Assembly: GCA_008632985.1 (NCBI GenBank)
Contig: QPGO01000048.1
Location: 310,001-374,000 of the forward strand
From: Psammoneis japonica
Lineage: Eukaryota
Direction: 5' to 3'
DNA length: 64,000 nt
Under the pieces are notes generated by a model that made no database searches, was not told the origin of the DNA, and worked only from the letters and a program-made list of their open reading frames with translations. Position 1 is the first letter of the stretch, and the number at the start of each line of letters is the position of its first letter. Shown here piece by piece: positions 2,322 through 64,000 of this stretch. The translations under genes and the position numbers were made by a program.

Positions 2322-2580
2322 TGTCTTCGAAGGGGTTGTTTCAAAGCAAGATGACAGCGGCGGCACGAATCCGGCAGGCATTGTGCGCTGTGCGCTACGG
2401 TACACGGGGCGAGGGCGGTGGCGAAGGGCGAAACAGTCCGTCGCATGGACGGACGGACGGACGGACGGAGAACGCGTGGATCATTTTTATCTTTGACACC
2501 TGCTGATCTCTACAGCACTGCTAGCTAGAGAGTAGAGAGTGGCTAGCTAGCTAGAGAGTAGAGCTCTACTCTAGCTAGAG

Positions 2581-4110
2581 AGTCCAGCTGCTGTTGCTCC
2601 AGCCACTGGCTGACAGCAGCAGCAGCAGAGAGCATTCTCGCGCAAGATGAGGACAAACGCGCGTTCACAATCGTCCAAAGCACTTCAGGAAGAACATGAC
2701 ACAAACACCTCGCAGCAAGTGGGCCATCAGCTGTGGACAACAACCACAACAACCACAGCATGGCACCCCCACCCAGTGGCCACCAAGGCATCCATCTGAA
2801 CAACTTTTGAGCTGGGGCATGCCAGCGCGCAGAGCCCAGCCAGTTGTGATCAGTTGTGAAGCATGGCAGGGCTCTCCTTTGCCATTGCCCCACCACCCCA
2901 CACCCTCTGCAACAGCTTCCACCTGGAGTTTGTTGCACACAGCTCTGCTGCCATGCAAGTCTGCCTCCTGCATCAACAATTCATTGTGGTTCCCAGCACC
3001 AGCATTTGGAGTTGCGTCCTCCATTGGCTGGCAGCTGCAAGATGGCACACTGCTTGACTGCAAGACATGTGGCGATGCAGCAGGTCTTCCCAGCATCTCC
3101 CCACAGCATTGCCAGTCCTTTTTTGTTAGAAACTGCTGATCAGAGATTGCAACAGATTTCAAAAACTTTGCAGCCAGAGCTGTGCTGGGAGACTGGCAAT
3201 GCTGAGAACTGCTCTCTGTGCGCCACAAAGAAATGCTGTGTGATGAAGAAAAAGTGGAGCTGTGCTGCATGACCAGTGTGGCCTGGATTTTGTGCAAACG
3301 ATGTCTCAATGTCTCACCAGTGTTGTTTGATCTGTCAAATGTGGGGTGCATCACATTGATTTCTTGCCAACTCAAGTGAGACAATGAAAAAGAACAGCAG
3401 GGCAGTCAGGAACAACAGTGTCAGAGCCAAAGCAGGGTAACAAAGAGTTTGGCAGGTGGTTGAGATTCACAGAAGACACATCTGCTGTTGCAGAGATGCT
3501 CTCCACAATGAGAAGAACTTCATCCCAGACTGGCACAAAATTGCTGATGGTGCTGGTGATGTGTGGAGAGATGACAGAGATTGCCCAGACAAGGGAGGGT
3601 GTTGCTGCTGATCTTGAGCAGGAGCTTGCTTGCAGCACCAACAAGAAGGGCGCTTCTCCTGGAGAAGAGCAAAGCTCTGCTGTCCTCTTGGAAATGCGTG
3701 CAGAAAGGCACAATGGTCGAAGAAGTCTCAAAGAAGATTCCAGCTCAAGAAGCAAAGCTGCTGGGAGAGATCAAGCAACAAATGTTTCCTCCAATGGGTC
3801 AAAGTCCATCCTTTTCATGCTTGGCTGTGCTTGCTCTGCACAAGCTTGTCCAACGATTTTGATTTGACACTGGGGGGGGGGGGGACAGCACACACCATGG
3901 TTGACCATCAGCAGGAGCCTGCTGCCATGAAAGGCTCTGACAGTGGCACAGACTTGGGGGCTCTCTTTCAAAGTGTGCAACACCATGATGCCTTGCATCC
4001 TGCCAAAAGTGACGAGTTTTTCAGTTCCGACCATCACGAAAAATTGCCACCTGTTGCTGCCTTTCACTGTTTCCATCTCACTGGGAAGCAATCAATTTTG
4101 ATTTGGAGTA
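2581..4110. other. TpA- and CpG-depleted island; unidentified decayed repeat or gene copy
   Basis: Only two TpA found by manual scan (3127, 3438) and few CpG. Cys/His-rich, Tyr-free ORFs in several frames. Flanked by TAG/GA-rich tracts. Confidence 0.7.
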
Positions 4111-4362
4111 AAAAAAAAAGCACGCTAGCAGTGAAATGCTGCATCTGGAGTATAGTAGAAGTAAAATACCGAACCACCAACAAAAGCACGACAGGCACAT
4201 CCTTCTCCTCAAAAGACTTCATCTAGAGAGGAGGGGGGGGAGGAGAGAGAGAGAGAGTTCGAGAGAGAGAGAGCAACGCAACTCATGTGCACCAGTCAAG
4301 ATGCCATAGACTAGACTCATGTGGTATTCTTTCCATTAAATCTAACAAAGGCAAATATTTAT

Positions 4363-5574
4363 CTACAGGCGGCAGTGGATTTTCGCTTTGTTGGCGTGCG
4401 GTTCCTCGTTTGCGAGCGCACCAGAACATCTTGAGATCCTTCGAACAGCGTCTATGAACTTTGTCGCAGCATAATCCGACCAAGTCACAAACTTCACCTC
4501 TGACTTGGACATACAGAGCCTCTCGGCATAGATCCAGTTGAAGATTTTTGCTTTGGTATGCCCGACAAGAATTACGTTGGGGTTCGAAAGACAAGCCTGA
4601 ATCGCACCTCCAACACGTTCATAATGGCTTTGGTAATTGTCTAAGCAAAGCACCATGGTTGGAATTCCTATGCTCAAAGTGGTGATGCCTGTTTTTCTCT
4701 TTGCCATATTCTTCTGTTCAATGCTACTCTCCGTCACATCGAAACTGTAGTTCACAATCACAGCACCTGCGACGCAATTTGGGGTGGAGTTTGCCAGGCC
4801 TTCCTCATCTAAATACTTCAAAATGGCGTTTGCCCCCATAGAGTAGCCAACGAGAAAAACCTGACTGTCTCGCGGAAAGTCAGAGGAACAACACAGATGC
4901 TTGACAAAGAATCTGTTGAGTGGAAAAGAAGCACAGGTTTAGAGTTGTGTGCCCGATGGAAATAATGCAAGAAGGAAGTGCCACACTAACCTAATGCCGC
5001 TCCTGAGTCTTTCGTCGGGATCAGTATGGTTTGGTTGTACATCGAGCGTATCTCTCAATAAAGCGGCCGTCCAGCCATATTCAACGCAGACCCGAGTTAA
5101 ACTGTGTTGTTGCCGAGTAACGGAAATGCTTGCAGTTGGATCTGGAACGATAACAACTACGGGAGAACGAAGAGCTTTTTTCCGGACTTTGTCGGAAGTG
5201 GACTCTGGAAACGTCCACTCGACCTGTACGGCGCATCTTTCATCATTGATTGTTTCATTCAAGGTATGCCCAGGGAAGACCGCACGTGTGGGCTTCAACA
5301 GAGAGCTATTGATCAAAGCTCGAGTCCTACCGAGCAATTTCTGACGCAACCTTCGAATGAATACTGCCGTCATTAAAGAACACAGTGCATCGTTGCGATC
5401 TGTCTGTTGCCGCAATACGAGTGGTAAACATACAAGTTTCCGTTGCTGACGTCGCTCCGAAACCCAGGCCGAAAACAGAAGAAGGATGAACCAACGTAAC
5501 AACTTTGGATCTCGTTTCTCGTTGTCACGCGAGACGAGCTTTTCTTTGTCGCTACTGAAACTTCTCAAAGTCAT
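4363..5574 (-). CDS. ABHD1-3/YheT-like alpha/beta hydrolase, divergent or possibly degenerate; exons 5574-4991, 4912-4363
   Basis: Nucleophile elbow 'VFLVGYSMGANAILKYL' plus 'IPTMVL' and 'NPNVILV' segments. Intron 4990-4913 (GT..CAG) restores the frame. Confidence 0.6.
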
Positions 5575-6290
5575 TGGACACGTCCTTTTGTAACTCTCTC
5601 ACTCCACCGACTAGTTTCGTCGATTGATTCCGAGAGTTAAAAGGGTCAGGTAACTTGTAGTTCTGACATCCCCATCTATGGTATCTTATTGCTTCGATCC
5701 GCCATAGCCGCCGCCATGGTTGTGGTTTGGTCCACGGTTGGGTAGGCGGACGGACGGATTTCTGGTTCATCTCACACTCTCTTAGCTACCGTAGAGAGAG
5801 TAGTTTAGAGTCTCTCTCTCTCTTTCTAGCTAGCAAGGAGAAAGAGCCTCGGATAGAGAGAGAAAGTGAGTAGCAGCACTATACGGTAGATCAAATTTCT
5901 CTGTGGAAGTAAGAAGTCTTGTTTACTAATTTTCAACCTGATCACCATGTCTTTTCTCGAAGTCGCATTTCCTCTACCGGTAGCGGTACTGTGTGTGTGT
6001 GTGCTGTAGAGAGCTCTCTAGAGCTAGGTACAGGGAGACTGTATTCTGTGCAGCAGATAGCCTACAGTACTATGCAATAGTCTCACACTTTTCACCTCAG
6101 CTTGCCTGACATCGCAGCTAAGTGCAAAGTCCTAACATAGAAGGTAATATGAGTAGCTAGAATTTCCATTTCGTATCCTACGATGATGCGTTGACAAGAG
6201 GAGAGCAAATATTCAAGATGCCAGGAGTTCTCAATGAAAAGCTTCTTATCCCCCACACCAATAGTCCTACTATGCTGCATCGGAGAAAAC

Positions 6291-8908
6291 CTACGCCCTC
6301 AAAAAGAACATCAGCAGCAAACACACAAAGGCGATGAAAACCAAGTTGCGTGGTGCAGCGAGGAAGCGAAGGTTGATACGAAACCGCAACTTCCTGTGGA
6401 AGAAACTCTCTCGTGAGCGCCTCGATTGGAAAGAATAATCTCGCTCATCTTCGACTGTATGAGTAAGGCCCAGCTTGGAGTTGAGCCAATTGGAAAGACT
6501 GGTTGTTAAAGACACTAAGAAAGTACACTCATAGCTCTTCGTACAAGTGTCAATGTCGTCGCCAACGTATGAAATGTCCATAGGGTCACACTTGACTGTC
6601 CCAGAAATAATGTCTTCCTTACCACGTTCAGTGAGCATCCCATTGCTTGCTTTCTCGGGCATGATGCTTCGCACAGTACCGAGCTCTTCGCGCACGGATC
6701 GCTTTTTCTGTGTCTCGATGAAATCTATTGGAAAGTCGACAATATTCCTCGCCTGACCAATAAGTATCTTGATGGCTGATTCGTCGCTGACGCCATTGCT
6801 GAACCAGTGTTGAGATGAAAGCCGTTCTAGTATGCCCATTTCTCGCACTGTCTTCATGTGCTGCATGTATACCTCTTCCAGCAGAGTATGCATGTCCTCG
6901 CTACAGGATGACAAGCTCTCGTCTCCAAGGTACGGTGCAAAGTCTCCAAGAATCTCAGTATGCTTGCCAACTAAGGAAAACAACGGATGGTCCGGAGCAG
7001 ATCTAGATAAGAGCTGGTTGATGGTGTCAACCACGGGCTTAGTGAAGACCCGAAACACTCGCTTCAAGTGCCTCAAAGAGCGATGAAATTCCTTGGACGA
7101 GAAATCAAGTTCTCGGGCGCGCCGAAGGAAGATTGCCAGAGGTATTGTGTAGAGATGGAGGTTAGCGGCAATGAAGGGCGCCCATTTTGGGGCGTATCGA
7201 CTTGGTGAAGTGGCCTTTGGAAATGTCACCACCCCTACAACATCAATTTGTTGAGAAGACCGGGGTGACACCGAATGCAGAAAGTGTTTTGCTGTCGAAG
7301 GTGAAAACTCGGATACAATTTTGTTGCTCTTGCCTTTGGAGGTTACAAAAATCCAAAGCGAGGACTCGTGGTGTTAGTGGCTTCAAAGCAATGAACGAGA
7401 AACCGACAGAAAGTTGATGAACGCTGGAACTTACGCATTTCCACATTCCAGGGTTCCAGCCATACGAGCCATGCATTCATTGCCGTGAAGAAAGCTGAGT
7501 CGGTCACATGAATCGGAGCGTGACGAAGCGTCATCCGCAAATAGTTGTAAAACGATTGCTGCAAGATAGTCATCGAGGGGCTGATGCACCATTTGTCCGG
7601 AGAAGCCTGAGATGACGATGTGTCTATGGAGGACAGAGCCTCAAAAGTATCAAAGACAGCCAATGAGACAGAAGGGTCAGAAACCAGGTGGTTGACCACT
7701 CGTCGCAAGCAAGTCTGAACCAATGCCGGTGGTGCCGAATAATCTTTGACGTTTGTCATTTCAAACGATGCATCAAGGGTCAACGGCATTGTAGCGGGCA
7801 TCCCATGCAGTCGTCGGCGTTCTTGAATCGCCTTCGCTACGTCAACACTTTTCGGAAAGACATAATTGCCGTCAAACCAGAATTCGATAACCACACGCAA
7901 AAATAGCTCTGAGTCACGGCCTAATTCCGAAAATTCAAGAAATGGTGGTCTTGCCTTTCCGTGAGGAATTAGCTGCTTTAGATATCCTCGAAATAGCCTG
8001 TCGTAAACGCTCCTTCCATAGTGCGAAGACTGCTTTCTATAGACGATAGAGCTAGAAGCATGACGAGAGCTATCGCTGACCCTAGACGAAGGGCTAGATA
8101 GTCCCTGTGGCTGGGGCACCTTGGAAGGAGCTCTCGGGGTGGCAAGCGGGTATCTCACGAAAGTGATGAGATAGTACTCGAGCATACTTAGCATAATGTT
8201 GCAGGGTGCATCAGGCTTGGATTCGCCCTTTTGAGGGGAGGGAGGAGCAGGCGATGCAACAAACCCGGGACTCAGCTGCAGGGGCCTTTGCTGTAATTGG
8301 TTTTCGGCTGCCTTCTTCTGTTGGTATATTCTCAGGTCATTCTGGTCCTTCGGGTGTACACGCAATAGACTGCCCGTGAGCAGAAAGGCATTTTGGCGGA
8401 GCGGCGCTGCCGGTGGGGGGCCACCAAAAGAAGACTTGAGAAGGGCCAACATGACCTCCTGAGTTGGTTGCGGAAGCGCTTCAAACGGGAAGGCAAAACG
8501 TACGCCGGGCCGGTGCTCTGTTTCTGCAGATATTGCGTCAAAAAGAGTTGGAAGCTGCTCGCTGCTTCTTGTCGATCTTCCAGCCAAAAGCTGCACGACA
8601 GAATCATTGTCAAGCGAAGTCGCTTTTGATGAGTAAGAGGAAGGAAGTCCTCGGGGCGATCTTGCGGAAGAAGAGACTGGGGGGTCCCAGCGATTTTGTT
8701 GAGAGAGCCAACCGCCGGGTTCGTGGCGAAATTCGTCCTTGGCCTGCATCTGCCCAAACAAGCGCTGGCATAATAGAGGAAACAGACGAATGAAACGCGC
8801 TTCAGCAACAGAACCACCAGCAGGTAGTTCATATCTTACAAAGGAAAGAAGCGCACGAGCAGCTTCGGACGGAGAGACAGCGTTGTTGCTGAACGCTTCC
8901 TCTAACAT
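6291..8908 (-). CDS. Sphingomyelin phosphodiesterase 4 (SMPD4)-like protein; exons 8908-7435, 7333-6291
   Basis: Family-type motifs WLVWLEPW, W..FIAAN..LY, SYE..FLV and RINLRFLA followed by a C-terminal TM. Intron 7434-7334 (GTAAGT..AAG) is in frame. Confidence 0.78.
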
Positions 8909-9127
8909 TGTGTGCGTAGGAAGAAAGGCTTCGATTACTCTCTCTGTTTACGCGGCTTCTCCAACAAGGGAAGGGTTTCTGAACAGCCAATGAAACAGGT
9001 CGATCTGGTGTATCTTTTTTTTGTTGTTGTCGTTGTCATTGTGCCATGTGGCCTCAGTACAGACAGCAGTCGGTCCTCTGCTCGACTCGCCTATGGAGAG
9101 TCTACGGCCTTACCGGTACCGCCCGCC

Positions 9128-11738
9128 CACCCCTGTGGTAGGGGAGTTGTGTGTGTGTGCGTGGTTGTGCGCGCACGGCTTCGCCGTGCGTTGAGTTTTA
9201 ATGTTAATATCCACACGAATGTGTATATTCCATAAGTAAAAATTCCTATTCCACAGCTCCCCTAAAACTCTAACCACCAAAAACCGAGGGGTCGGAAGCG
9301 CACTTTCGGGAGCTCTTTTTCTCCGCACAAAAAACACGCGTTTCGTCGACTCGACCATGATGATGCCTCGTGGTTCTTCCCCATCGCCTTCCCAGGACGC
9401 CGATCCTACTGACACCGTTGCCAACAACACTGACACAACAGGCAATGTCATTGTTCCGGTTCTCGTGGGTGTGATGCGTACAAAATAAGATGCTACAAAC
9501 TCACACTGTTGTTTGCACGCTCCACCGCCTCCCACAGATGCCATCACGAATTCCAACGCCGTACCTGCGTTTCGGGCCCCTAGCATGCCCGACACTGTTG
9601 CTCCCACCCTCACTGCCGCAGGTGCTGTTGATGCTGTTGTTGCATTTTGCCAATGACGTCCACAATGAAATGCCAACAACTCACACTTCTTTCATTCTCG
9701 CCCCACCGCCTCCCACAGATGCTGTCACAAATTCCAACGCCGCACCTGCATTTCGGCCCCCTGGCATGCCCGATGCTGTACTCCCACCCTTGCTGCCACA
9801 GGTGCTGTTGATGCTGTTGTTGTCTTTTGCCAATGACGTCCACAACGAAATGCTTGTAACTCACACTTCTTTCATTCTCGCCCCACTGCCTCCCACAGAT
9901 GCTGTCACGAATTCCAACGCCGCACCTGCGTTTCGGCCCCCTGGCATGCCCGACACTGTTGATCCTGCCCTTGCTGCCGCAGTTGCTGTTGACACTGTTG
10001 TTGTTTTTGCTTTGGAAGGAACACAGTGGATGACGGATGACGGCGGACCAGGAAACCCACGCAACCACGACCTGCTGATGGACGACACATCAATGGACAT
10101 GAATGGTGCCTCTTGGTTGGCTCTCGAGTGCAGTCTAATCTTTAGAATTTACAGACACATTGTGCAGCTCTCTGCAAATTAGAAACCTGGTGACAATTGG
10201 ATGGCAGGCATGCTTTCACAGTTTTTTAGTTTCAAGTTGGAGAGGTCAGCGAATTGGCACTTGTTTGCAGGCGACTTGGCAAGGTTTCAAATGGTGCATG
10301 TGACTTGGACACTGCTCTGTTTTCCAGGACTGGGCCATTGTGTGCAATTCCACAAGAGGCCACTCTCGCCGTTTGAACTCTGCATGTGACGCACAACACA
10401 CTGTTTTTGCATGTTGCCAAAATGGAGGCAGGCAGCAACGTGCTTTTGGCAAATGCTCACTGTGTTTGTCACTGTCAGACCTTCAAAACCAGTGCCTTGT
10501 CGACAGCCATGCTGCCACTTTGCATGCCGGCACCTTCTCTGCCCGTGTTCCATTGGCTGCGTCCTCCTTCACATGTTGCTGCGGTTCATCTTGACACTTG
10601 TTGTTGGCTCCGATTGGTTCCGCTGGGCTCTGGGTGAGTCTCAATCACCTCCAGACAGACAAGGTTCTGCTTGGGAATGATCATCCTGAGAAAGGTCATC
10701 ACCATGCCTCCTGTCATAGATGCTCCTCTGCCACGCCCACTGAACCTTGACGTCGGTTTGTTGCTTTTGTTTTTTGACCTGGTTTCGGAGCTGCACCCCA
10801 GACCGTTTGAGAGAAGGCTCATCAGCACCTTCCACAACACGGCGATGCAAACGAGAATCCAGTTTCTCCGGGGGGACGGGTTCCAGTCCTGGGTGGGACT
10901 CCGTGTGACATTGGGCCCGTAGAATTCCACGTGCGAGCTCCGCAGCACGAGAATTTAATTGATGGATGTGTTCATCTTCAACATCAAATAAACTGCCAAG
11001 TTTGTGGCACAATCATGCCTCTTGCCACTCGACGTTTTTGCAAATGCGCCTGCCCTGCGCGATTCTTAAGACATTTTAGAATCGCGCTGCAACAAAAAAT
11101 GTCAAAAGTTGTTGGACGGATCGCTCAACAAGTGCACCACAAAATGACACAAAATGTCAAAAAAATCACGTAGAAATCTGCGTGCGCGACATGCGACGTG
11201 ATTCAAAAAACCATCGATGTCACAGTTCAGCAGTGCGAGGTCCCACCCAGACCTGGAACGCAGTCGGGGACGCAATGACAGGAGTGGACCAATCACGGCG
11301 CTGTGTTTGTGTTTCAGGCACAGGATCCGGCGAACAGAAGCCCAAATCCTCCGGATGGCAAATCGGCTGTGTTTGGGTAACGACAGCGGGTGCAACGGTG
11401 CCGGCCAATGCAGGAGGGACTGCCGCATCAGATGTGGCAGGCGGGGATGCGTCAGGTGGTGTGGGGGATGAAGAACGGGAGGTCGTCATGGTCGAGTCGA
11501 CGAAATGCGTGTTTTTTGTGCGGAGAAAAAGAGCTCCCAAAAGTGCGCTTCCGACCCCTCGGTTTTTGGTGGTTAGAGTTTTAGGGGAGAATGTGGTTCA
11601 GGATTTTTCCTGCTGCTATTAGCATTTGTGTACAAATGCATAAATAAATGTGAGGACATTTATATAAAAATATAATGAATAAGATATAAACTGCCACGTA
11701 ACCATGACATCACCATATTCTCCCCTACCACAGGGGTG
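9128..11738. mobile_element. Non-autonomous or decayed TIR DNA transposon with 19-bp perfect TIRs and a 9-bp flanking duplication (Mutator-like by duplication length)
   Basis: CACCCCTGTGGTAGGGGAG (9128-9146) / CTCCCCTACCACAGGGGTG (11720-11738). CCGCCCGCC at 9119-9127 and 11739-11747. Inner inverted repeats at ~9256-9360 and ~11486-11589. Confidence 0.85.
9499..10005. repeat. 180-bp tandem repeat, about 2.8 copies
   Basis: CTCACAC anchors at 9500, 9680 and 9860, with alignable units. Confidence 0.9.
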
Positions 11739-11747
11739 CCGCCCGCC

Positions 11748-11990
11748 CACCCCTGTGGTGGGGGAGCTGTGTGTGTGTTCGTGGTTGCGCGCGCACGGCT
11801 TCGCCGTCCGTTGAGTTTGAATTTTATTATTCACATGTATGTGTATATTCCATAAGTAAAAATTCCTACTATTAGCATTTGTGTAATGATGCATAAATAA
11901 ATGTAAGAACATTTATATAATAATATAATGAATAAGATATAAACTGCCACGTAACCATGACATCACCATATTCTCCCCTACCACGGGGTG
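11748..11990. mobile_element. 243-bp MITE of the same family as the 9128-11738 element
   Basis: Left ~120 bp matches 9128-9248 and right ~120 bp matches 11616-11738. Same TIRs with 1-2 changes. Confidence 0.88.
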
Positions 11991-14900
11991 CGTGGGTACC
12001 GCCCGGTAAGTTCTGTCCAACCTGCGTACGTAGAACGCGTGTTGCCATGGGTGGTCAACAGCCTCTACCGGTACTAAGAAGTAATCTTGACGGTGCGAAC
12101 TCCGCCGTTAAAGTATACATTTATTTATTTAGAAGTACTGTAGCAAGAGACCGACACGCGAGACTTCACACTCCTCATTTTTTCAAGGTTGGCGCATCAT
12201 TCATCAAAGCACCACATACCATGATACTCGGAGCGGCTTATTAGACTATTGACGATCCTTTCAACAGTACCCAAACGCTATCTACTTTACCTTTTTATAG
12301 AAACATCACGATGGAGAGTGAGAGAATGATGTGTACTTTACCGTGTAGATACCGTATAAAAAATATGTACCGTATGTATGAACAAACCTTCTTTTCGTCT
12401 AAAGCAGACTAAACTCAACGGACAGCCGTTAATAATAAAAATAGTACAATACGTATGACTTTATTTTCCGTTGAAGTGATATATAAATATTCCAAGCTTT
12501 TGAAATTTAAGGGACGGTGCGGAAATGTCCATTACATCTTTTTAAAAGTTTTCCACACGTTTTTTCTACCGAGTCTATGTAGTTCACGGGGCTTAAATAA
12601 CGAAAAAAACGGTAGGTATTTATCTATAGCCTTTGGCCCCAAATTACATCTTTTTACATTATATACGTATTTTTCCTACCAGATCGAGTAGTTCACAGGA
12701 AACAATTCCTTTTGTATCCGTTAACGAGAGATTTAAAATATTTTAAGTCATTAGTTGACGCGGCGTTGATCTAGCGCACGTAGTGCGTATTTATTAGACT
12801 GTGTATGCGTGTGTACGTGTGTGAGGTGTAAGTAGAATATACGTAGAATTACTACTGAGTGAATTGACTGCGGTGGATTTTCGGCCGGTACACAATTTAC
12901 GTGGTCTACATGGAAGATAAATTTATTATGGTCTGTGAGGATTTTACATGTCATTAACATTTCTTCGATCTTTCAAATGTACACACCCAAATTCAAAAAA
13001 GTGAGGAACACCCCGAAACACATTTTAGAATCTGCATTAAAAAAAATTCCATTTAACGGTCCGAACAGAGTCGCCCCGAAGCGCTTCTCAAAACATCTTG
13101 AGATTCAACACAGCAAAATGTCTGCTGTTGGCAAAACAGAGTCACCATGGGAAAAACAGATCACCGTCCTTCGCCGCGCGCAATGACAGCGGCACGATGT
13201 GGGGGACGTGAGACTGTCGAAGAAAGTCACGTAGATTTTGCACTAAAACAGTCTGTCAATCAGTGCGATTGGGTGTTTGGGACCTCTGGACAGATCCTGC
13301 GCATTTTTTTTTGCGTGCAAATTGCACTGGGAAAACCCCAAACGCACTGGCGATCAGACCGCCTTCGACGATCTCACTTCCAAAGACGCCCCCCAGATGA
13401 CATGCAACAACACCATGGCGAGCAACGTGAACGCCGCTCACTTGTCTGCCAGCTGGCATTTCCAGACAAGTTCAAAGCTGTTGGACAACATTTGTGCACT
13501 GTGTTCATGGGTCAAGTTGGGTTCCTTCTCGTTGCTTGTTGTCGTGTCTTTTTGCAACGTCTTGACCCACGCCGTGTTTTTTGCTTTGTTGCTTCTGCTC
13601 AATCGCGCGCCACCGAACAGCTTTTCCTGCAGGGTGTTGGCATGGCCAGCTGCTCATCACATCGAACCCAAACGTGCGTGACCAACTGGCCCCACCCCGG
13701 CCAATTCACAAGTGTGACAACGTCTTGTGACTGGTTGCGTGTGTGTGATGCGTCTTCTCATGCACTGGTGATTGATTCGCTTGTGCAGTGCATGCAGTGC
13801 AGCACCTGCCTGCCAGGACGTTGTCGACACAATGCACTGCACATGCTGTGCATTCAAACGCGGCAATGACCCCCAGGCAGTGGCAAGTGCTTCTGCAAAT
13901 CCGACTTGTCATAATCAGCAGTGACTTTGCCAACGACGAAAAGTGCCACCAATCTCAAGTGCCGGCAAGTCCCATTGCATCCGTTGCTCCTCGTCACTTT
14001 TGAGCTTCAACGCTGCTCCCACAACAGAACGACAACCGCAAGTGGCCACTGCTGCGTCGTCCATGGGCCATTCTTGAAACGAGAGGTCTTTCAACTAGAG
14101 TCAACGAACACAAGAATTTGGCAATGCCGAACGACTGGAGACTAGAGTGCAAGATGCAATGCACACATGTGCTGCAATGCATCACATTGTCGAACTGGAG
14201 TGTCTTGCACGTCTCTTCTTAAAAGCACCCTCTCTGTGAGGAAGAAGGTTTCTCTCACTTCATTGCAGACGCGGAGACGGGTCCAACTTGCAAGGATCAA
14301 CGCAATCCGTTTTGCACCCGCAACATTCCCAACGAAGGCGAACGTTCTCGGTGCCGGTGATCCACCGCAAGCTTTACGTCGTCGTGCCGAACATTGTGAG
14401 ACCATGGGTGCGGACCTTCACAAGGCACGCACGGTCGCGGACAAGTGTCAATTTGCTGCCAACCTGAAGTCGGGCCTCATTGTCAATGGCGTCTTTGCCC
14501 ACCAAAAGGATGTTCATGGATGAGAACACTTTGTTGTCGATGATGCCCATGGTGGATTCAAACACGAACACGTGGCTCACACCACATGCTCATGTGCACT
14601 TGGATTTAGGGTGCGCATTCATGAGGATTGTAGAAAGATTTGGTTGGACATGCTTTTCAACAATTTGGGTGCTCCATGTTTGGCAGTCAGGAAAAGGAGA
14701 CTGGCTGTAGCACCGGAAGTCGCGCTGCACAACTTTTACAATTAATTTCTTGTTTCGTGTTGCGAAAGCTTGGCACTCAGGTCCAGCACTCTCTGGTGTT
14801 TGCTGTCTCCACTCCAACCATGCTTGTGGCCTTCTTCTGTTGACCCGAGCTCGTGATGCCACCGAAACAGTCCTGGTTTGCTTGCTTTCATGTGCAACCG

Positions 14901-15123
14901 CACCGCATCTCTGCTGAGAAACGACCACACTTCTGCTTGAACCTCGAGCTCAAGATGGGAGTGTGTCAGGGTGTGAAGTCCTCACAACTCTGCCACTTCA
15001 GTGTTGAGACAAATGTTGAGAATGCCACAGTTTAGTTTGCTGCTCAGTGACGTTGCTGCAGTGCATTGTCACATTTTACATTCTGTTTGTTGCCCCGCCT
15101 CAAAACTCTGACTTAAATCCCAC

Positions 15124-16384
15124 TCAGCTGGACTTAGAGAAAACCCTGCTCAGCTCATGTTCCACTTCTTCGTCAATCCAACATGGGTGCAGGTTCAGAT
15201 TGCTTTCCACTGACAGCTCGACCCGGTCCTCTGCAGCAAATCGCATGAACCCACGCTTTTTGTGGACACGAGGGATCTCGCCACATTGAACAATCCAGGA
15301 TTCGTGGTCACCCATGGCACTGGCGTGCGGAATGTCGCTCAAGATTGCAAATTCATCTTCCGTTGGCTGAATGCGGGCAATGACATCATACAATGCAACG
15401 TCCTTGATGCTGGGCGACAAAGCACAGAAGCAGAGCTTGTTCAACTGCGTGGTGTCAATTGCCGCCACAACATGAGCAATCACCTCATCACGTTTCAAAT
15501 GCAGTGCCTTGCCCAACCAGTCGATGCCCTCAAGTGCAAACTGGCATCACCGATTGAACTGCGTGCGTTGCAAGGGGGATTGTGCAAAGCATGTGCGAAT
15601 GGACACTGAGCCGGGACGAACATTGAATGGGAGCCAGTGACATGCATCCCGCTTGTCTGTGTGGGCGACGGCCAAAGAGCTGTTTTGTTCAACAGGATTT
15701 GGATTGCGCTGTGCAGTGCCATTGTGCAAGAAATGATAAATCGCATCGTCAAACGCCACACCTGCGCGCTCCATCAGCCGAGCCCTGACATGGTGGCACT
15801 CGTCCCGGAAACAAGAAAAGATGTCGGTCATGCTGTGCCCAATGCAAGAGACCAATTCCAATCAGATTTTCTGGACTGTCCATCAGAGAACTCCGTAGAG
15901 ATCGCGGCTCAAATCGCTCCGCGCGCATCGTTGTGGGCACTGACTTGGGCTTTCGAGGCATTGGACGCTCCATTGCTGCATCGTTGTCGCTGGCATCGTC
16001 GTCTCCAGCATCGTTGTTGTTCGCATCATCTTCAGTTGCATCTTTGTCTGCTGCTTCTTCGACGATCTCCCCGTCAGATGACTCTCGTTCTGGAACACCC
16101 GCGACCGTGATGGGGTGGAGATTGGAAACGCCGCCACCGAAAAGGGCTTTTGTTGCAAGGCAATGTGAGCTTGTTTGGTCCTTGTGAATCGCCATGAACT
16201 GATCTGCAAGCTCCACATCCTTTTGAGCTTTTTCTTGGTCCCACTTCTTTTGTTCTCCCTTTCAACAATTGGCCGCTCTTCGTTTCGAGTCCCCCTCTTT
16301 CATTCGTTTGTTTGTGCGGTGCTTGCGTGTGGCAATTGCGCCCTTTGTTGTGGAGCAACTCGATCCAATCTTCTTGCCAGCCAT
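15124..16384 (-). pseudogene. Decayed TE-borne ORF of unknown function (basic N-terminus, acidic linker)
   Basis: ATG at 16384 (MAGKKIG...) leads past one stop into ORF 15749-16216, followed by ORFs 15547-15861 and 15124-15516 in shifted frames. Confidence 0.4.
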
Positions 16385-17954
16385 GGTGCTTTCTCAATCG
16401 CATTGAAGTTTTTGTTGTTCTTGTTGTTGTGACTGTGAGCCGAGAGGTTGTTGGCAATCGGCATCATCGAAAGTTTTTCAAAAAGCATTTTAAAACGTCT
16501 CACATGGTTTTTTGTCGTTTCAGTCCCGTTGCCGCTCACCCGCCACCCATTTTGAAAAGTTTCTGAAACAAACAAGAGAATGCGGAGAGTCATTCAACGT
16601 GCCATCCGCCTCTGCTGCTTGTTCAATGAGCTCATGCCAAGAGAGTGCTGGCAGATGGTGACATGGTTTGGTTTTCTTTTCATGCCTGATGCGTTTTCTG
16701 ATTTCCGTCATTGATGATTGATGCGGACAATGTGTTTGTAAAAAGCCTAAAAACGTGCATAAAAAGTCATTTTCCTTCTCCCAAATCTGTTTTGGAATGA
16801 CCGGACAACAACAAGAAGAGCCGGAGAAAATGTCCATTTGATTTTGAACGAGTTTTCCTGCCAGGTTGTCACAGAGAAATCGGGGCATCGAAGGAAATGT
16901 CCATCCAAGTGGTGCTCAGTGCTGCCTGTCCAACAGCAGTGCAATGCCATGCTGCCAAAGCTTGAGACCTCTGCAGCAGCAGCAGTGTTCACAAGGTGGA
17001 AGCCTTCACAAACTTCAGGCATTCTGCCCAGTTGCTGCAAAAAGCGCCCCATGAATTTTGGCTGTGTGGAGCTTTCAGGAGGTGGGTGCCATGTTTTCAC
17101 ACATCCACTTGCAGTCTGTGCTGAAATGGCAGCCCAAACAAGCTGCACAAAGGACAGCAAATGCTGAAACACAGGAGCAAGTGGGGATCAGAAACAAGTG
17201 GTGACAGTGCACACTGTGAGAGAGATGCAAGAACATTGTTTGGAGCAAAAAACCAAGTTGCAGTTGAAGAAAAAAAGGAGTCCCAAGCAAAGCTCACCTT
17301 TTGCTGCCATGACCCAAAAAGGCCAGTGCCCCAGGCACCAAATTTGGCAATGAGCACAAGTGTGGTTGCAAAGATCAATGACAACAATTGTGAAACCAAG
17401 AACTCTGAGGAGCAAGCACATTTTTCCACAAAACATTCAGTTGCGTGAGTTGGGCATTTGCTTGGCGCACACGCACAAACTTGCCCATGACCCAGAAATG
17501 AAAAGCTTTGCTGCAAGCTCATCTTGCACATCAAGGCATCACAAGCACTGCACAACATGCAGTGCTGCATGGGGGTTAAAAGGCTTTGTGCACAGGCAGA
17601 CACCAACAACCAATGGGCTGGGCAACTGCTGTAAAAGAAAAGCTTGAGAAAAGCAAAAATGGAAAGTGAGTCTGGACGAACGTCTGGCGGGGCAACAATC
17701 TGAGATGCGCACCAGCATGACAAAATTGCTGTTGCTGTGGAAAGTTGGATTTGTCTCATGCTGTCAATTGTTTGATGCAAGCACCACATGCCGGCATGTG
17801 GAAAACTGATGTTGTGCATTGAACCAAGCTGTGATCTTGCATGCTCACACAACACAATCTTGTCACCTGCCATGTGTTGCTTTTACCATGTGGCTCACCC
17901 CACTCATTTTCATCTCACTTGTTTTTACAATGTGAACAATGGTGCCCCCCTTTG

Positions 17955-20900
17955 CCATGGGAAATGATTGTCCCATGTGTGGCAAACGTTTCCTCCTGAC
18001 TGGTCTTCAACGCCACCCAAGAACTCATCTTCCCTGCTGCAAACTCTCCTTTTCTCACAGCCTTCGTGCCATTTCTTCCCATCAATCAGACACCGCTCAT
18101 GGTGAACAGTTGCAAATGAGAGAACTAGAAGAACCAGGGGATGTTGCTGCCTCTTCTGCCCTTGGCTCTCCTTCCATTGAATTTGTTGCTGCAGGGTCCC
18201 ACTCTAACACCGGGCCAACTCCACAAGGTTGCACGTGACTCAATCCCCAGCTGTTGCGATGCAATCATGCAGTTTTGTCTGTGCCAGAGTTGTGTTGTTT
18301 CCATGACAATGCCGTTTTGCCCCACACTGATGACATTTCAGAATGCCAGTTCCCTGACCATGAAGAGTTTGTTTCCGACACCAAGGGCACTGCTGCCGTG
18401 GTTGCCGAACCAGGCCCTTTTGCTGCACTCAATCAAGTTGAACACCTCTCCACTGACAAGGACCTTGTGGCACCCAAAGTTTGCAACAGCAAAACCATTT
18501 CCATGGCCCGCATGTTGAATCTGTGTCACTCCAAGGGTGCCCCAATCAGCGCAACCAACGAACTTCTGAGAACTGCACAAGAGGAATTCTCCAGTGGTGG
18601 GTTGTCTGTGACCCAACAAATTCCCTCTCCTTGAACTTTCATGTCACAGCTCAAGTCAGTGTTGCCCGGCGTTGTTGCTCCAGTGCTGAAGCAAGTCCCC
18701 CTTGAGTCTGTGTTTGTTGTCAACCAATTCAAAAACAACCTGCCGCAGGAGCTTTCTCCTGGCATCCCTGTGTGTGACTTTTCCCTTCAACTGCAGGACT
18801 TGTTTGACAATCCCCTTTTTGCAGATCTTTCCAATCTCAATGTTCCTCCTGATTCACGTTGGTCTCAGGTGATCTCCAGCAAACCCATTCTAGATGAGAA
18901 TGGTCACTGGGAACTTTGCAATGATGCTGAAATGAAGGATGGAGAAACTTGCAGCAACTCTTTGCATGGCTGTGATGTTCCTGCCACCCCAGGTTGCTTT
19001 CATGTGTTTGTTGTGTGCTGCGCCAACAAAACTGGGAAAGGACAGGTTGCACCTCATTTGATGAAGCCATTTGTTTTCTCTGTGACTCTCATCAAGGCAT
19101 GTGCCCGCCAATGTTTTGAAGCATGGCATCCCCTTGGATTTGTTCCGAAACACACAGGCCACAAAACAAAGAACCCCGTTTTGGGGATGAGTGTCAGAAA
19201 TTGTCACCACATTTTATCTTGGCCTCAAATTTTGACAAACAGTCTCCGGAAGAGAACTGTGATTGAGAAGAGGAAGACAAAGCCGTCATGCATGCAAAGA
19301 AGGTGAAGATGAAGCAGGCAATCCCAACAATTTGCTCAACGACCACGACGAGTCAGCATGTGAATCCAATGAACACCAACCAAATTCACAAGATGATGAC
19401 AAAGAGACTGACACAGAGAAAGCATCTCTGACAGACCACCCATGTTTGTCAGTGCAAGCTGTTGAGTGGTGATGCAGCGCTCTTGGCTGAATGACCAAAG
19501 CTTGGCCAGTGGGAAGTGTGTTGAGAAATCCATCTGTGTCAAGAGTCTGGAACAAATGATTTGTGTCAGTGGGAGACAACTCAACAGAAGAGACCTTCTT
19601 GCATGTCAAGGTCCTCTTGCTGGTGTGCTGACCGGGTTGGAAATGCACACGTTGCCAAGAGAATTTGTCATTGTTTTTGCGATCAAGTCCTGTCAGAAAG
19701 GGAGGGAGATGAGATGCCAAGTGACAAGTGGAACGCAACAATGACATGGAAGGTGCAAATGAATGTGGGGGCAAGGAGAGGGTGCAACCTGGCGAGAAGA
19801 AACAGTGACACTGTTGCTGTGTTGCTGTGCGACATTGTGACAAAAGTGCCGCAACGTGTTGAGAGGATGGGGCTGCAACTCGAGTTGGCACAAATGTCCA
19901 AATCAATGAAAAATGAACACAAAAAAATGGGCAACCTGTTTTTGTTACAGTGTGGTGATTTACATCAAAATTCTGTGTCAATCAAAAAGCAAAATGAGGA
20001 ATGAACATCAAATTTTTGCACTCTGTTTGAGTGATGTGTGAAAAAAAGAGATGCAGCAGTGCATGTCATTCATTGCAAAAAAAAAGGATGCACAAACACA
20101 TGCCCCAATCATTCCATTTAAGAACGCTGCACATTTCGTGGAGAAGAATGCCTTGGCCATTGCCCAATTTACAAAATTTCAATGTTGGTGACTGTGCAGT
20201 CAACTGCCTGTGCAGCTTCAACATCACAATCCAAAATGTGTGCATGATGCAAACAACAGCAACAGAGACTCAGTGCTGGCATCAAATGTGCATCTTCCAA
20301 TTGCAGACAGTGCAACATGCTGGGCAGCCTGGGATGCCTTTGCATTGACGGAAGGCACCCTGAGTGGGAGAATGCTTTTAAAAATGGATGAAGTGAACAA
20401 ACAAATGAGGCAACCCATGCTGCAAGCATTGAGAGAAGCAGCAGATCGAGACAAAATGTTGAAAATGCGGAGGAGTGACAACGGCAATCCCAGGTTCACT
20501 TTGATGTGGAGACACCGGACTGCCAGGCCAGCGCAGCATTTGCAAAGAGACCACATGGTCATTTTCCGGCCGCTCAGTTCACATGGTCAACTGGGTGAAA
20601 ACAGAGTGTGTGCCGACACGCGGAATTTCAATTTTCATGCTGTGGTGGGATTTGTGGATGGTCACAGGTTGAGCTTGCGCAACCATGTTTGGAGAGGTGG
20701 TTGAGCCAGAGCCGTGTCCGTTGCAAGGAACACATGGACAAAGTGACTTTGATGACACAGTTGAGCTGCTGCAACATGGAAATGCCAGTCAGTGTTGTGA
20801 GACAGCTGTCTTCCATGATTTTGGTGGCTTGCAAATGCAGAGACAAAGCTTGCAAGTTCCCAAGAATTGTTTGTGCTCTGCCACCTTGCAGACACGGTCT

Positions 20901-21200
20901 GTTCATCATCAGAGAAAATGCCATGTTGGACATGGTTCATCTTGATGTGCACAACAGAGGAAGGGTTGGCTGGCCTTTTGCGGACAATTGCTGCCCTCTG
21001 ACAGTGAGCAGAGATGTTGCATTTTACAAGAATGTGCTGCTGGGATTGAGGATGCACTGTGCAGGAATGCACGCTGTCCAAGAGGGTTGCATCAGTGGAT
21101 TGGACCAAAGTGTGGAGTGCTTGTTTTTGAATCATGCAAGTGCAGGTTAGAAAGAGCTGGACAGGACATCAAGGAAGGCAGAAGGGCAAGAGCCAGACCA
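17955..21200 (+). pseudogene. Plavaka-family transposase remnant with N-terminal C2H2-like zinc finger
   Basis: CPMCGKRF..GLQRH, 'IPVCDF.LQLQDL', 'CCANKTG' (cf. YxDKT), 'PFVFSV', 'AWHPLGFVP' (cf. AWRPLGFIP), 'RNCHHIL' (cf. RNYH) and 'RQ..R...LTGLE'. Several stops and frameshifts. Confidence 0.75.
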
Positions 21201-21856
21201 GATGATGAGTGAGAATTAAGCTGAAAGCAAGAAATCCTGGCCAGCTGTGACTTCTGCTCTAGAGTGACAAACCCTGGCAATTTTTAATGCAGTTGCAACT
21301 GTGGTCAAACAATGCTCTGGAGGTGTGGGAAACAAGCAAGAGATGGCTAAGAGCATGGGGCCCCAGACGGCAAAGCCAGGTCAGGCAGTTCATGTCACAA
21401 GCCGGCTAAAAATGCAAAAGAGAGTGTTCAGACTGCAGCCCTTTCCACAGCCCAAAAAATAAAATTAGCTTGTGATTTGAAAAATCTGGCATGCAATGAG
21501 ATGCAGTGGCATGGTGCTTCGTGCGCATCATGCAATGTAAAGTGGATGCACAATGTGAAGCAGCAAATGGCAAAAACTGCCATTCAAACAGAGTGCAAAA
21601 TTCATTTGTCAATGTTCAAAAATGACACATTTGAAAATTTTGGCATTCAGAGAGAGAGAGCAATGTCAAGAAGGGCAAACAGGCATGCTGGCAGGCACGG
21701 GTTGGGGTTTGATTCAGAGAGAAAAATTTGGGTGCAACAACACGGGAAAAGGGCAGGCAAACATGTTGGCATGAAACAATTCATCAGGTGCATGCATTGC
21801 GGCAAGAACAGCGTTGATGCACAAAGAAGTTTGCCTGCTGATGCAGATCATGCCAT

Positions 21857-22890
21857 GTGTCCTTCATTGCAGTTGGCGCCCATGACACAGCAGAGACAGG
21901 ACATGCATCCCAGAATGTGGAGATTGCGGGAATGTTGGTTGTCAGGTCGGAGGCAACAAAGAGGAAGTTTGTGGATGGCCAGACAACCAACTGTGTTGCA
22001 ATGGCTGTGTGCCCAAAGACCAAGTTCGTGATGCATGATGAGGTCAAGCTGGCTTTCGGGAGCAAAATGCAGCAAAAGGTTTGCAAACACCTCAATGTTG
22101 ACACCAGTGATTGTGCAGGTTGGTGGGAAGAGAACAAGGAGAAAGTGAGGAAAAGACCAAACAGGAAAAGAAACAACAGGCAGGAGGTTTTTAGAAAGAA
22201 GATGGTTGGCATGTGCAGCGAGGGTGGCGTGCAGATGCAATGGAGCAGTGTTCTCACCCATTGATTCTTGCTCAGAGATGGCTGGACACAAAGGAATGCC
22301 AAGTGTCAAAGAGACATGGAAAAGGGCAGGGCATTGCCACAAACACACTTTTGGTTCTTGGAAAGGTGCTGCTCCCTTGCAGCTGGAATGGAACAATTTG
22401 AGACAGCGGACAACCAAGGTGTCAGCAATTGGCTGACAACAAGTGTGGGGAAGCTCTTTTGCCAGGCTGATGTGTGACAACTGCTGCAACACAGCCATGG
22501 CTTTGAGGGAGATCAAAAAGCAGTTTGAAGAGAGAGGAGAAGTGCAACAGCCAACCCAGCCCCAGCCGATCCAGCACAATGTGGTGGCAGAGGAAGGAGA
22601 GAACAAACTGCAGCAGAGTCAGCACACAATGCCTGCAGACAAAGAAATCAGAGAGCACGCATGGCAAGAAAAGAAAGAAGAAAAAGAAGGATGGCATGAG
22701 GGGATGGGCTGCTCCAAAAACTGATTGGAGTGACAGCAAGGAGGAAGCTGCAGGAAGGAACAACAAACAGGGGAGTGCAGAGGAAGAAACTGCAGGGGCA
22801 GCAGCGACCAACAACAGCACTTTAACACAAATGGGCACTCAAGGAGGCAGAGTGAATGACAACCCACAGAAGCAGCTGAGGATGCCATGA
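21857..22890 (+). pseudogene. Accessory ORF remnant of the type accompanying Plavaka/CMC-like transposases
   Basis: 'VCPKTKFV...WWEENKEKVRKRPNRKRNN' resembles the FPxxKF...W...VR..LNxKRNN domain of such elements (recalled, not searched). Confidence 0.45.
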
Positions 22891-31400: not shown

Positions 31401-31640
31401 NNNNNNNNNNNNNNNNNNNNNNNNNNNNNNNNNNNNNNNNNNNNNNNNNNNNNNNNNNNNNNNNNNNNNNNNNNNNNNNNNNNNNNNNNNNNNNNNNNNN
31501 NNNNNNNNNNNNNNNNNNNNNNNNNNNNNNNNNNNNNNNNNNNNNNNNNNNNNNNNNNNNNNNNNNNNNNNNNNNNNNNNNNNNNNNNNNNNNNNNNNNN
31601 NNNNNNNNNNNNNNNNNNNNNNNNNNNNNNNNNNNNNNNN
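31401..31640. other. Assembly gap (240 N)
   Basis: Run of N. Confidence 1.
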
Positions 31641-63904: not shown

Positions 63905-64000
63905 TTCTTGCCATTCTTGAGTCGACAGGTGATCTCGTGCTCGTGCTTGAGATTGCTCCTTCCTTCCATTCGCAACTCTGTGATTGTTGGTGGAGGAATC

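Follow-up and report, generated by a model that had tools for sequence, protein, structure and literature searches.

The locus examined here is a 2.4-kb repeat element in a 64,000-nucleotide stretch of diatom DNA (the window). The element is bounded by a left inverted arm at 9239–9382 (+ strand) and a right inverted arm at 11464–11608 (− strand), which are 89% identical over 145 bases. The right arm has kept its TA dinucleotides at 11574 and 11582, and the left arm is regarded as unmutated because both of its TAs (9263 and 9271) are kept and its observed/expected ratio (o/e) for CA+TG is 0.70. The interior of the element (9383–11463) is TA-poor, with 21 TAs against 117 expected (o/e 0.18), a CG o/e of 0.72 and a CA+TG o/e of 1.61, the strand balance being 202 CA to 214 TG. 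The interior contains a tandem array of three units (9488–10010) and, some 900 bases away from it, a nested very-high-copy element (10876–11287). Four MITE parts, all on the + strand, adjoin the element, namely A1 (9115–9248), C1 (11613–11735), A2 (11735–11868) and C2 (11866–11988). A1 is 91% identical to A2, TA-rich and unmutated (TA o/e of 1.37 over 9108–9248), and the MITE block at 11613–12020 is likewise unmutated (TA o/e of 1.23). In the organism's own sequencing run 9104–11807 is multi-copy throughout, and the unmutated MITE parts also occur in many copies (summed depth 2400–5900 versus 59 for single-copy DNA). The element itself is multi-copy, with tens to hundreds of copies in the diatom genome. 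Pfam gave no match for 8 ORFs of the element. Two long ORFs across the array (235 aa on the + strand and 159 aa on the − strand) were rejected as genes; as Pfam matches are absent, they are taken to be side effects of missing TAA/TAG stops. Rfam returned no match at gathering score and ARAGORN no tRNA, and there is therefore no sign of a SINE-type origin. The array forms the internal tandem repeat within a putative non-autonomous, transposon-like element with inverted arms.

TRF places the array at 9518–10010 with a period of 180, 2.7 copies and 87% matches, and addition of the 5' part extends it to 9488–10010 (+ strand; TA o/e 0.20, CA+TG o/e 1.82). Unit 1 occupies 9488–9667, unit 2 9668–9847 and the truncated unit 3 9848–10010, all on the + strand, with a spacing of 181 bases from unit 1 to unit 2 and 180 bases from unit 2 to unit 3. 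A self-BLAST of 9000–13100 against the 64,000-nt window found no further array copies. A reading of this DNA from its letters (the sequence-only reading) had proposed that the units record changes of TA to CA and of TA to TG, and a direct position check found all the strings that it quoted in their places. The outer copy carries GCCGTACC at 9558 (TA at 9562) and CCCTAGCA at 9578 (TA at 9581), and the inner copies carry GCCGCACC at 9739 and 9919 and CCCTGGCA at 9759 and 9939. Alternation of CA and TG between units is seen in GCCATCAC at 9540 versus GCTGTCAC at 9721 and 9901, and in GACACTG at 9591 and 9952 versus GATGCTG at 9772. The TA at 9779, which had been flagged as running against the trend, is present and does break the outer-versus-inner pattern, but it is in no conflict with a direction from TA to CA/TG. 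The further proposal that the repeat spans the edge of a TA-poor island could not be upheld, the left edge falling anywhere in 9271–9614 depending on the residual TA share that is assumed. Within unit 1 a converted site (9542) already precedes the retained TAs, and a sharp edge inside this unit was rejected. The MITE pair had also been offered as before-and-after evidence. Its strings are real (GGTAGGGG at 9137 and GGTGGGGG at 11757; ATGTAAG at 11901 and ATGTGAG at 11648) but selected: with both MITE pairs pooled, 7 of 60 TA columns differ versus 13 of 197 others, doublets number 0 and transversions make up 9 of the 20 differences. The pair carries no such signature and was set aside, its differences being of mixed spectrum.

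Comparison of the three units over 129 ungapped core columns has revealed 23 variable columns, 17 of which lie in pyrimidine-purine (YR) steps. Five sites are CA/TG doublets (unit-1 positions 9542, 9593, 9605, 9611, and 9632), three set TA against CA/TG (9562, 9581, and 9599, the last with its TA in unit 2), and four set CG against CA/TG (9526, 9547, 9568, and 9617, with unit 2 having A for G in three of these losses). The remaining six variable columns are at 9521, 9576, 9601, 9622, and 9643–9644. Sorted by source, 13 of the 23 belong to TA sites if the presumed ancestral TA of the doublets is counted, 4 to CG and 6 to other changes; TA changes dominate the array, with CpG decay and background change superimposed. 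Between units 2 and 3 there are 14 differing columns, and YR steps account for 11 of these. When 23 single substitutions were placed randomly with the observed transition share in 100000 runs, the doublets averaged 0.18 with a maximum of 4, and five or more, the number observed, occurred in 0 of the 100000 runs.

A CA/TG doublet needs a TA or a CG as its intermediate, and the sequence-only reading had admitted both. Decay of methylated CpG alone, in which the doublets were once CG and 5-methylcytosine was deaminated on either strand to leave TG or CA, has some footing here, since CG-to-TG/CA changes are present at the four array sites and account for all 3 differences in the first 105 bases of the inverted arms. 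Five sites carry CG in every unit, 4 carry it in two units and 0 in a single unit, yet the five doublet sites would have to have lost it totally. Its loss rate (4 of 27 unit-sites at the nine CG-holding sites) predicts about 0.03 sites with all three copies lost, compared with the 5 doublets seen. This argument presumes one CG loss rate, and a fast-decaying subclass of CG would weaken it. For TA the corresponding tally is 0 sites in all three units, 0 in two, 3 in one and 5 with mixed CA/TG; a single TA loss rate of about 0.87 per unit predicts about 3 one-TA sites per 6.7 fully converted ones, and 3 are seen. Methyl-CpG decay is thus no sufficient cause of the array pattern, CG being retained at 23 of 27 unit-sites and TA at 3 of 24. 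A CG origin of the doublets is excluded because CG survives at nine array sites, and the array points to TA as their probable ancestor. At the array's own eight sites, where we infer an ancestral TA from saturation, the fates in the three units are CA 9, TG 12, and TA 3, and all 21 conversions are transitions. A hand count gave a switch of strand in 12 of 18 neighbouring converted pairs, and for this reason no strand-coordinated runs are recognized in the array. The estimated hits per site are about 2.1 for TA, 0.16 for CG and about 0.02 for non-YR positions; on these estimates TA would have been lost about 13 times faster than CpG decayed and roughly 100 times faster than non-YR sites changed.

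Other parts of the window are depleted in TA as well. A large tract (13066–31400) extends to an assembly gap and has a TA o/e of 0.10 at 13–17 kb and 0.05 at 17–31.4 kb; none of its 57 ORFs of at least 110 aa matched Pfam. A short tract lies at 2585–4109, with edges resolved to about 30 bases and no Pfam match among 5 ORFs tested at 2.6–4.2 kb. A third (56834–64000, − strand) holds a Helitron with Helitron_like_N, DUF6570 and PIF1 helicase. The tracts have a TA o/e of 0.05–0.2 and a CA+TG o/e of 1.55–1.82, compared with 0.65 and 1.13 in genic DNA; the TA o/e is 0.59–0.65 in the genic parts of the window and 1.2–1.4 in the flanking MITEs. In the Helitron helicase, Cys occupies 3 of 3 columns at which Tyr is conserved, and Tyr makes up 0.2% of residues versus 1.8–4.0% in 13 homologues. 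In addition, A has taken the place of V at 5 of 13 columns and that of T at 4 of 10, the outcome expected from GTA to GCA and from T-ACN to T-GCN. CpG decay on its own draws some support from the CG o/e, which falls to 0.15 at 17–31.4 kb. That process cannot remove TA, however, and the tract TA o/e of 0.05–0.2 occurs where the CG o/e is still 0.6–0.8 (13–17 kb, 57–64 kb, and the array). The boundary of CG loss is a separate one, at 16898 inside the 13066–31400 tract, and the change of Tyr to Cys in the Helitron requires TA to become TG. Methyl-CpG decay as the whole explanation is therefore very unlikely. Selection or composition, by which TA would be avoided as in the general under-representation of TpA while the units drifted, is in keeping with the low TpA of the genic parts too. 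Suppression of TpA/UpA is a known general feature, as far as the accessible part of the source goes (PMC3829696). Avoidance of this kind would produce neither paired CA/TG alternatives at homologous sites nor Tyr-to-Cys changes at conserved columns of a dead Helitron. It would also not produce tract edges (2585, 4109, 13066, and 56834) resolved to 30–80 bases, and we consider it highly improbable.

The element has also been compared with its other genomic copies by aligning contigs from a sequencing run of the same organism to 9000–12100 at 80% identity or more. A total of 4818 contigs aligned, of which 745 were at least 99% alike and 192 fit two places. The contigs differ from the window at 296 places (A>G 62, T>C 68, G>A 66, C>T 57, and transversions 43), so that 253 of the 296 are transitions. 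Among the 40 places listed, 11 have CA/TG in the window and TA in the other copies, 8 form four CA/TG doublets, 3 have TA in the window and CA/TG in the other copies, 5 are non-YR transitions and 7 are transversions; 5 of the 40 fall in the array. The window's A at 9582 is common to only 35% of depth, and contigs of other units may align to unit 1 there. The nested element has a summed contig depth of 120000–270000 versus 59 in the single-copy flank. Its other copies have TA at at least 11 sites where the window has CA/TG, and TA amounts to 69–96% of depth at 5 of the 11 listed sites; the reverse case is absent among the places listed for this element. Outgroup copies with CA/TG ancestral, named beforehand as refuting evidence, were likewise not found among the listed places of the nested element at 10876–11287. 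Two further sequencing runs contained almost no sequence of 9000–12100. Scans of metagenomes with 41-letter patterns in which the YR steps were left open gave 0 matches for the array and 0 for the nested element, the organism being evidently absent there. TA is shown to be the ancestral state in the nested element and in the window's Helitron, and the direction away from TA rests on the nested element's other copies, on Cys for Tyr in the Helitron helicase and on the low TA o/e of the mutated tracts. The differences between the units are supported as what independent TA-to-CA and TA-to-TG changes after triplication would be expected to leave.

The same contigs bear on a sequencing or assembly artefact, in which a modified base of TA in silent chromatin would be miscalled to give TG or CA. 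The run compared may be the source data of the window's assembly, and therefore it cannot confirm the letters independently. Were TA miscalled systematically, every unit would show the same letter, and CA in one unit would not face TG in another. The single-copy flank shows 0 differences to contigs of the same organism, the 745 contigs at 99% identity or more agree with this stretch, and the loss of Tyr at the protein level fits real substitutions; an artefact is hardly credible. An interior that was already TA-poor before insertion, through earlier mutation or by origin, with unit differences taken over from a source lineage and nothing happening at the site, was also considered. The tract reaches no further than the inner ends of the arms, which are intact; the adjoining multi-copy MITE halves are older than the insertion and untouched, and other copies of the family are also rich in CA/TG, with doublets against the window such as 10399–10400 at 72% of depth. 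With the arms and the adjoining multi-copy MITEs left unaltered, some of the interior's state may derive from a source copy that had already been mutated, instead of having arisen here. As a full account this reading is nevertheless unlikely: it shifts the place and time and not the process, and the doublets would still need hypermutable TA after triplication. Doublets against most other copies show conversion still under way after the copies had separated, and the nested high-copy element has TA in most of its other copies.

The reading that we prefer, and hold to be very probable, is that silent repeat DNA in this diatom undergoes post-duplication hypermutation of TpA to TpG and CpA on both strands. 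The array unit would have been triplicated first, and the interior of the element would then have been mutated by a DNA-level process that turns TpA to TpG by an A-to-G change and, by the same change on the opposite strand, TpA to CpA. This process would work on a single site and a single strand per event and would probably have acted on DNA in place. Independent hits on the units would account for CA in one unit, TG in another and one TA left at three sites. ADAT2/TadA acts on A34 of tRNA after U33, which is a TpA context. A polynucleotide adenine deaminase of the TadA/ADAT2 type, targeted at silent repeat chromatin, is put forward tentatively as the most likely agent. A wider proposal, to which we give slightly less than even credence, is that diatoms have an active genome defence that edits the adenine of TpA in DNA and targets silent repeat chromatin, shared with, or convergent on, that proposed for Bigelowiella. 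Such a defence would hit many single sites independently, on one strand or the other and without processive runs, spare short arms and MITEs, and outrun methyl-CpG decay by an order of magnitude.

[quoted passage not shown] Its occurrence in a diatom as well would imply either an ancient eukaryotic defence or two separate origins, and both would point to a natural DNA adenine deaminase; should the agent prove ADAT2/TadA-like, two distant algal lineages would possess a natural base editor of DNA adenine that prefers TpA. The array serves as a compact internal control, with three copies of one sequence under the same process, and yields the speeds of TA, CG and other changes relative to one another, an approximately equal use of strands, a lack of processivity, and the order of events, duplication and then mutation. 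Tracts poor in TA lack TAA/TAG stops and therefore give rise to long false ORFs in annotation.

Several known systems share features with this one. RIP in Neurospora and other ascomycetes acts mainly at CpA, where C:G becomes T:A, so that TpA is gained and the DNA turns AT-rich. Both RIP and the present process are dinucleotide-specific transition hypermutation that ruins repeats and spares nearby genes, and both can be detected by copy comparison and dinucleotide indices. Here, however, TpA is destroyed and CpA/TpG are gained, the opposite direction at a different base, and multi-copy MITEs adjoining the tract are spared. CpA transitions that raise TpA and lower GC were not found, the tract GC being 0.46–0.53, and with regard to a trigger by duplication, the mutated element is multi-copy and so are the adjoining unmutated MITE parts. 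Methyl-CpG decay, which also operates within this window, likewise converts a self-complementary YR dinucleotide to TG or CA by strand and leaves CA/TG alternation between copies. It differs in that its target is the C of CG, in being about 13 times slower in the array, and in having its own tract boundary at 16898. ADAR hyper-editing of double-stranded RNA has a 5' U preference, according to the accessible Discussion text of the preprint (bioRxiv 10.64898/2026.01.13.699255), and thus resembles the present case in changing A to G with a preceding U/T favoured. ADAR edits RNA, and a change in the genome would need reverse transcription. The targets here are the Helitron, which is a DNA transposon, and a non-coding inverted-arm element, and the two strands are hit equally.

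The closest parallel is with the chlorarachniophyte Bigelowiella natans, for which Mettrop et al. have reported hypermutation confined to TpA in the integrated DNA of giant viruses and virophages (bioRxiv 10.64898/2026.01.13.699255). In the accessible text of that preprint, mutation-accumulation lines yielded 231 mutations in two viral regions, of which 230 were A>G or T>C, all on TpA, at a de novo rate about 1000-fold above that of the genome; the same text has no mention of diatoms, CpG, or tandem repeats. The two hosts belong to unrelated lineages, and the targets in the diatom are a Helitron, the inverted-arm element and unrecognisable repeats. The diatom tracts are near saturation (TA o/e of 0.05–0.2, compared with 0.45 in the B. 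natans viral region as given there), some of them show CpG loss alongside, and the rates given here are relative estimates from sequence alone rather than real-time measurements. As far as the accessible text allows the comparison, the likenesses are that nearly all changes are A to G or T to C, that TpA becomes TpG or CpA by strand, and that TA is ancestral and CA/TG derived, as found here in the nested element and the Helitron and as saturation suggests for the array. In both organisms, on the same footing, the process is confined to DNA that is foreign or silent, next to genes that evolve normally, and an ADAT2-type adenine deaminase has been proposed as the agent.

The 180-base tandem array was located at 9518–10010 by TRF and covers 9488–10010 once its 5' part is included. 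It consists of three units (9488–9667, 9668–9847, and a truncated 9848–10010) at spacings of 181 and 180 bases. The strings that the sequence-only reading had quoted were all found in place, and 23 of the 129 ungapped core columns were variable. Ten of the 23 form five CA/TG doublets, homologous sites that are CA in one unit and TG in another (unit-1 positions 9542, 9593, 9605, 9611, and 9632). Three further sites show TA against CA or TG, reading in units 1, 2, and 3 TA/CA/CA at 9562, TA/TG/TG at 9581, and TG/TA/TG at 9599. Four sites show CG against CA or TG (unit-1 positions 9526, 9547, 9568, and 9617), three of the four being CA in unit 2, and six variable columns are other changes. When 23 single substitutions were simulated independently at the observed transition share, doublets averaged 0.18, and five were reached in none of 100000 runs; the observation is real and chance is excluded. 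A comparison of units 2 and 3 gives 14 differing columns, of which 11 fall in pyrimidine-purine (YR) steps, and mutation of the array is therefore later than the last duplication. The CG losses private to unit 2 (9729, 9750, and 9798) are all G to A on the plus strand within 70 bases; these events, three only, may reflect minus-strand cytosine deamination in a small, strand-coordinated group.

Any CA/TG doublet requires an intermediate that was either TA or CG. CG in the array is kept in three units at five sites, in two units at four, and in one unit at none, a loss in 4 of 27 unit-sites. At this rate, arithmetic gives about 0.03 sites with all three CGs gone, against five doublets seen. TA is kept in three units or in two units at no site and in one unit at three sites. 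One per-unit TA loss of about 0.87 predicts about three single-TA sites per about 6.7 fully converted sites, with mixtures visible at three quarters of the latter; three single-TA sites and five doublets were seen. A fast-decaying CG subclass could have made the doublets as far as three copies alone can tell. Because the counts of CG survival and TA loss fit TA and not CG, the doublets are best read as former TA sites, given a single CG rate for all sites.

The array lies in a 2.4-kb unit bounded by a left (9239–9382) and a right (11464–11608) inverted arm, which share 89% identity over 145 bases; the three differences within the first 105 bases are each CG versus TG/CA. One contig of X1, a public sequencing run of the same organism, links arm to arm on opposite strands, and a Pfam search with the ORFs of the unit gave no match. 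The unit is read as a non-autonomous inverted-arm transposon. It sits between MITE parts, of which A1 (9115–9248) and A2 (11735–11868) match at 91% and C1 (11613–11735) and C2 (11866–11988) at 93–94%. The junction of MITE parts at 11697–11789 is palindromic (CTCCCCTACCACAGGGGTG, 9 bases, CACCCCTGTGGTGGGGGAG), and by eye the whole 9108–12018 block is bounded by similar 38-base inverted ends, CTTACCGG...GGTAGGGGAG (9108–9145 versus 11981–12018). Junction and ends suggest that the inverted-arm element has split one MITE and that a second, intact MITE lies beside it.

The interior (9383–11463) contains 21 TA against 117 expected (observed/expected, o/e, 0.18) with a CA+TG o/e of 1.61, whereas each arm retains both of its TAs at a CA+TG o/e of 0.7 and the MITE parts have a TA o/e of 1.2–1.4 and a CA+TG o/e of 1.18–1.26. 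These sharp differences confine the mutated tract to the interior alone. A change-point fit placed the right edge at 11574 (support 11489–11582); the left edge varied with the assumed residual TA share, falling at 9584 (support 9496–9614) or at 9275 (support 9271–9605). The island edge that had been claimed at the array was overstated, since the left-edge fit shifts with this assumption and conversion is present to the left of the retained TAs: converted site 9542 precedes those of unit 1, and 9383–9478 holds one TA and is already CA/TG-rich. The TAs retained at 9479–9581 are thus better viewed as an incompletely converted patch than as an island edge. Other tract edges in the window, at 2585, 4109, 13066, and 56834, are precise to 30–80 bases. 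The MITE pair had also been cited in support. Both differences quoted for it are present, yet a comparison over the full length is unremarkable and this argument fails: A1 and A2 have 12 differences (6 transversions) and C1 and C2 have 8 (3 transversions), 9 of 20 being transversions; 7 of 60 TA columns differ versus 13 of 197 other columns; and doublets number zero.

No further copy of the array was found within the 64-kb window, and metagenome scans using patterns with every YR step open gave no match. Contigs of X1 were placed on 9000–12100 at 80% likeness. Summed depth on 9104–11807 was 2400–15000 versus 59 on the single-copy flank, and the whole inverted-arm element is therefore a multi-copy family. 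At about 10872–11287 summed depth rose to 120000–270000 versus 59 for single-copy DNA; this stretch of about 410 bases forms a nested element of very high copy number within the interior, and its depth suggests thousands of copy-equivalents. Rfam and tRNA searches with 10876–11287 gave no match. Many X1 contigs break or skip inside it (joints 10945–11017, 11013–11129, and 11137–11204). The window and the contigs differed at 296 places (A>G 62, T>C 68, G>A 66, C>T 57, transversions 43), and context classes were assigned to 40 listed places of the 296. Among these 40, the window has CA or TG and the other copies TA at 11, all 11 inside the nested element, with TA at 69–96% of depth at 10928, 10946, 11008, 11140, and 11180. 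Eight rows are four CA/TG doublets between window and majority, three places (9582, 11618, and 11641) have TA in the window and CA/TG in the others, and the rest are CG-related (6), transitions outside YR steps (5), or transversions (7). The ancestral state of a family with thousands of copies is usually approximated by the state that most copies share. By this criterion TA is ancestral in the nested element and the window's CA/TG is derived. Five of the 40 listed places lie in the array, two of them transversions; at 9582 the A of a window TA is matched mostly by G in other copies, and at 9750 and 9887 CG is the majority in other copies, with CA and TG in units 2 and 3. In addition, 192 X1 contigs fit two places, and contigs of one unit can align to another. 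With five listed places and such cross-unit placement we infer, rather than read, the ancestry of the array's own sites, where TA was probably the ancestral state.

As judged from protein alignment, substitutions in a Helitron helicase provide a second, independent test of direction. Minus-strand ORFs at 58912–60363 and 61088–64000, both in a tract with TA o/e of 0.06, have PIF1 helicase, Helitron_like_N, and DUF6570 domains across them. The helicase ORF was aligned with 13 homologues (33–49% identity) and conserved columns were tallied. Cys is found at 3 of 3 Tyr-conserved columns, and residues are retained at 10 of 10 columns for Phe, 6 of 6 for Asn, and 24 of 26 for Gly. Tyr content is 0.2% versus 1.8–4.0% in homologues, and Cys content 4.8% versus 0.9–2.8%. 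Val is replaced by Ala at 5 of 13 columns, as expected from GTA to GCA, and Thr by Ala at 4 of 10, as expected from T|ACN to T|GCN.

The window has a GC content of about 49%, long intron-poor ORFs, and a eukaryotic look. In a protein search with a minus-strand BRCA1-associated-protein-like ORF at 32959–34863, the matches naming an organism are all diatom (Seminavis, Nitzschia, Mayamaea, Fragilaria, Cylindrotheca, Attheya, and Bacillariaceae), at 39–45% identity, and the source is accordingly taken to be a diatom with no closely related named species among them. Two adjacent long minus-strand ORFs at 6291–8947 probably belong to a single gene that stops about 160 bases short of the MITE; the 360-aa ORF matched PF14724, the mitochondrial-associated sphingomyelin phosphodiesterase family (E 3.9e-08), and a Pfam search with the 534-aa ORF gave no family. 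The TA-poor tracts are a trap for gene prediction. With TAA and TAG stops nearly missing, stop-to-stop ORFs of 110–445 aa are common on both strands at 13–31.4 kb and 9475–10182, and none of 57 ORFs of at least 110 aa in 18 kb (13–31.4 kb) had a Pfam match. Beside the N gap at 31401–31640, short repeats, tandem and palindromic, are clustered at 31884–32572 (ACGAC x24; 20–21-base units with CGACAAAATTTGTCG; CGTTTGTCGG x12), where the large TA-poor tract has its right end, and CG o/e is 1.71 at 32–33 kb. Inside the continuous TA-poor tract 13066–31400, CG loss sets in abruptly at 16898 (range 16886–16931), with a CG o/e of 0.80 at 13–17 kb versus 0.15 at 17–31.4 kb and a TA o/e of 0.05–0.10 throughout. 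Two decay processes with distinct boundaries perhaps point to a pair of elements that differ in age or methylation state.

Repeat DNA here loses TA, with CpG decay and background change superimposed, by a process that is TA-specific, acts on both strands, and produces transitions exclusively. At eight inferred TA sites in three units the fates are CA 9, TG 12, and TA 3, so both strands were used; neighbouring converted sites change fate in 12 of 18 cases, and strand-coordinated runs are therefore absent. CA and TG are balanced in every tract. In the array TA sites took about 2.1 hits per site versus about 0.16 for CG and about 0.02 for other positions, so TA loss is no side effect of CpG decay. 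Tracts with TA o/e of 0.06–0.1 retain CG o/e of 0.6–0.8, and because CG is kept in TA-poor tracts and the CG-loss boundary lies inside one, the two losses are separate. The process would act on DNA; RNA editing fixed by reverse transcription is disfavoured because the targets include a Helitron and a non-coding element, with both strands equally affected. The interior may have been mutated at its present site or partly inherited from an already mutated source copy; the untouched arms and MITEs are compatible both with tracts of limited extent and with the survival of copies whose ends stayed intact. The simplest chemistry would be deamination of adenine at TpA to hypoxanthine, read as G. TadA/ADAT2 enzymes deaminate A34 of tRNA, which, as far as is known, U33 always precedes. 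An ADAT2 homologue is proposed in a Bigelowiella natans preprint (bioRxiv 10.64898/2026.01.13.699255).

Overall, the core of the sequence-only reading, conversion of TA to CA or TG, is right, and its edge and MITE arguments are overstated. The array adds information on how fast the sites change relative to one another, on strand symmetry and non-processivity, and on the order of events. RIP changes C:G to T:A at CpA and creates TpA, a direction opposite to that of the array process, which loses TA. In the B. natans preprint, two integrated viral regions carry 231 mutations, of which 230 are A>G or T>C, all on TpA, and its main text makes no mention of diatoms, CpG, or tandem repeats (bioRxiv 10.64898/2026.01.13.699255). 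This 2026 preprint was the sole description of TpA-restricted A:T to G:C hypermutation of DNA found in a literature search at the level of listings and abstract openings. With a diatom host and transposon targets, the present tracts add a new case to a class described in a single preprint.
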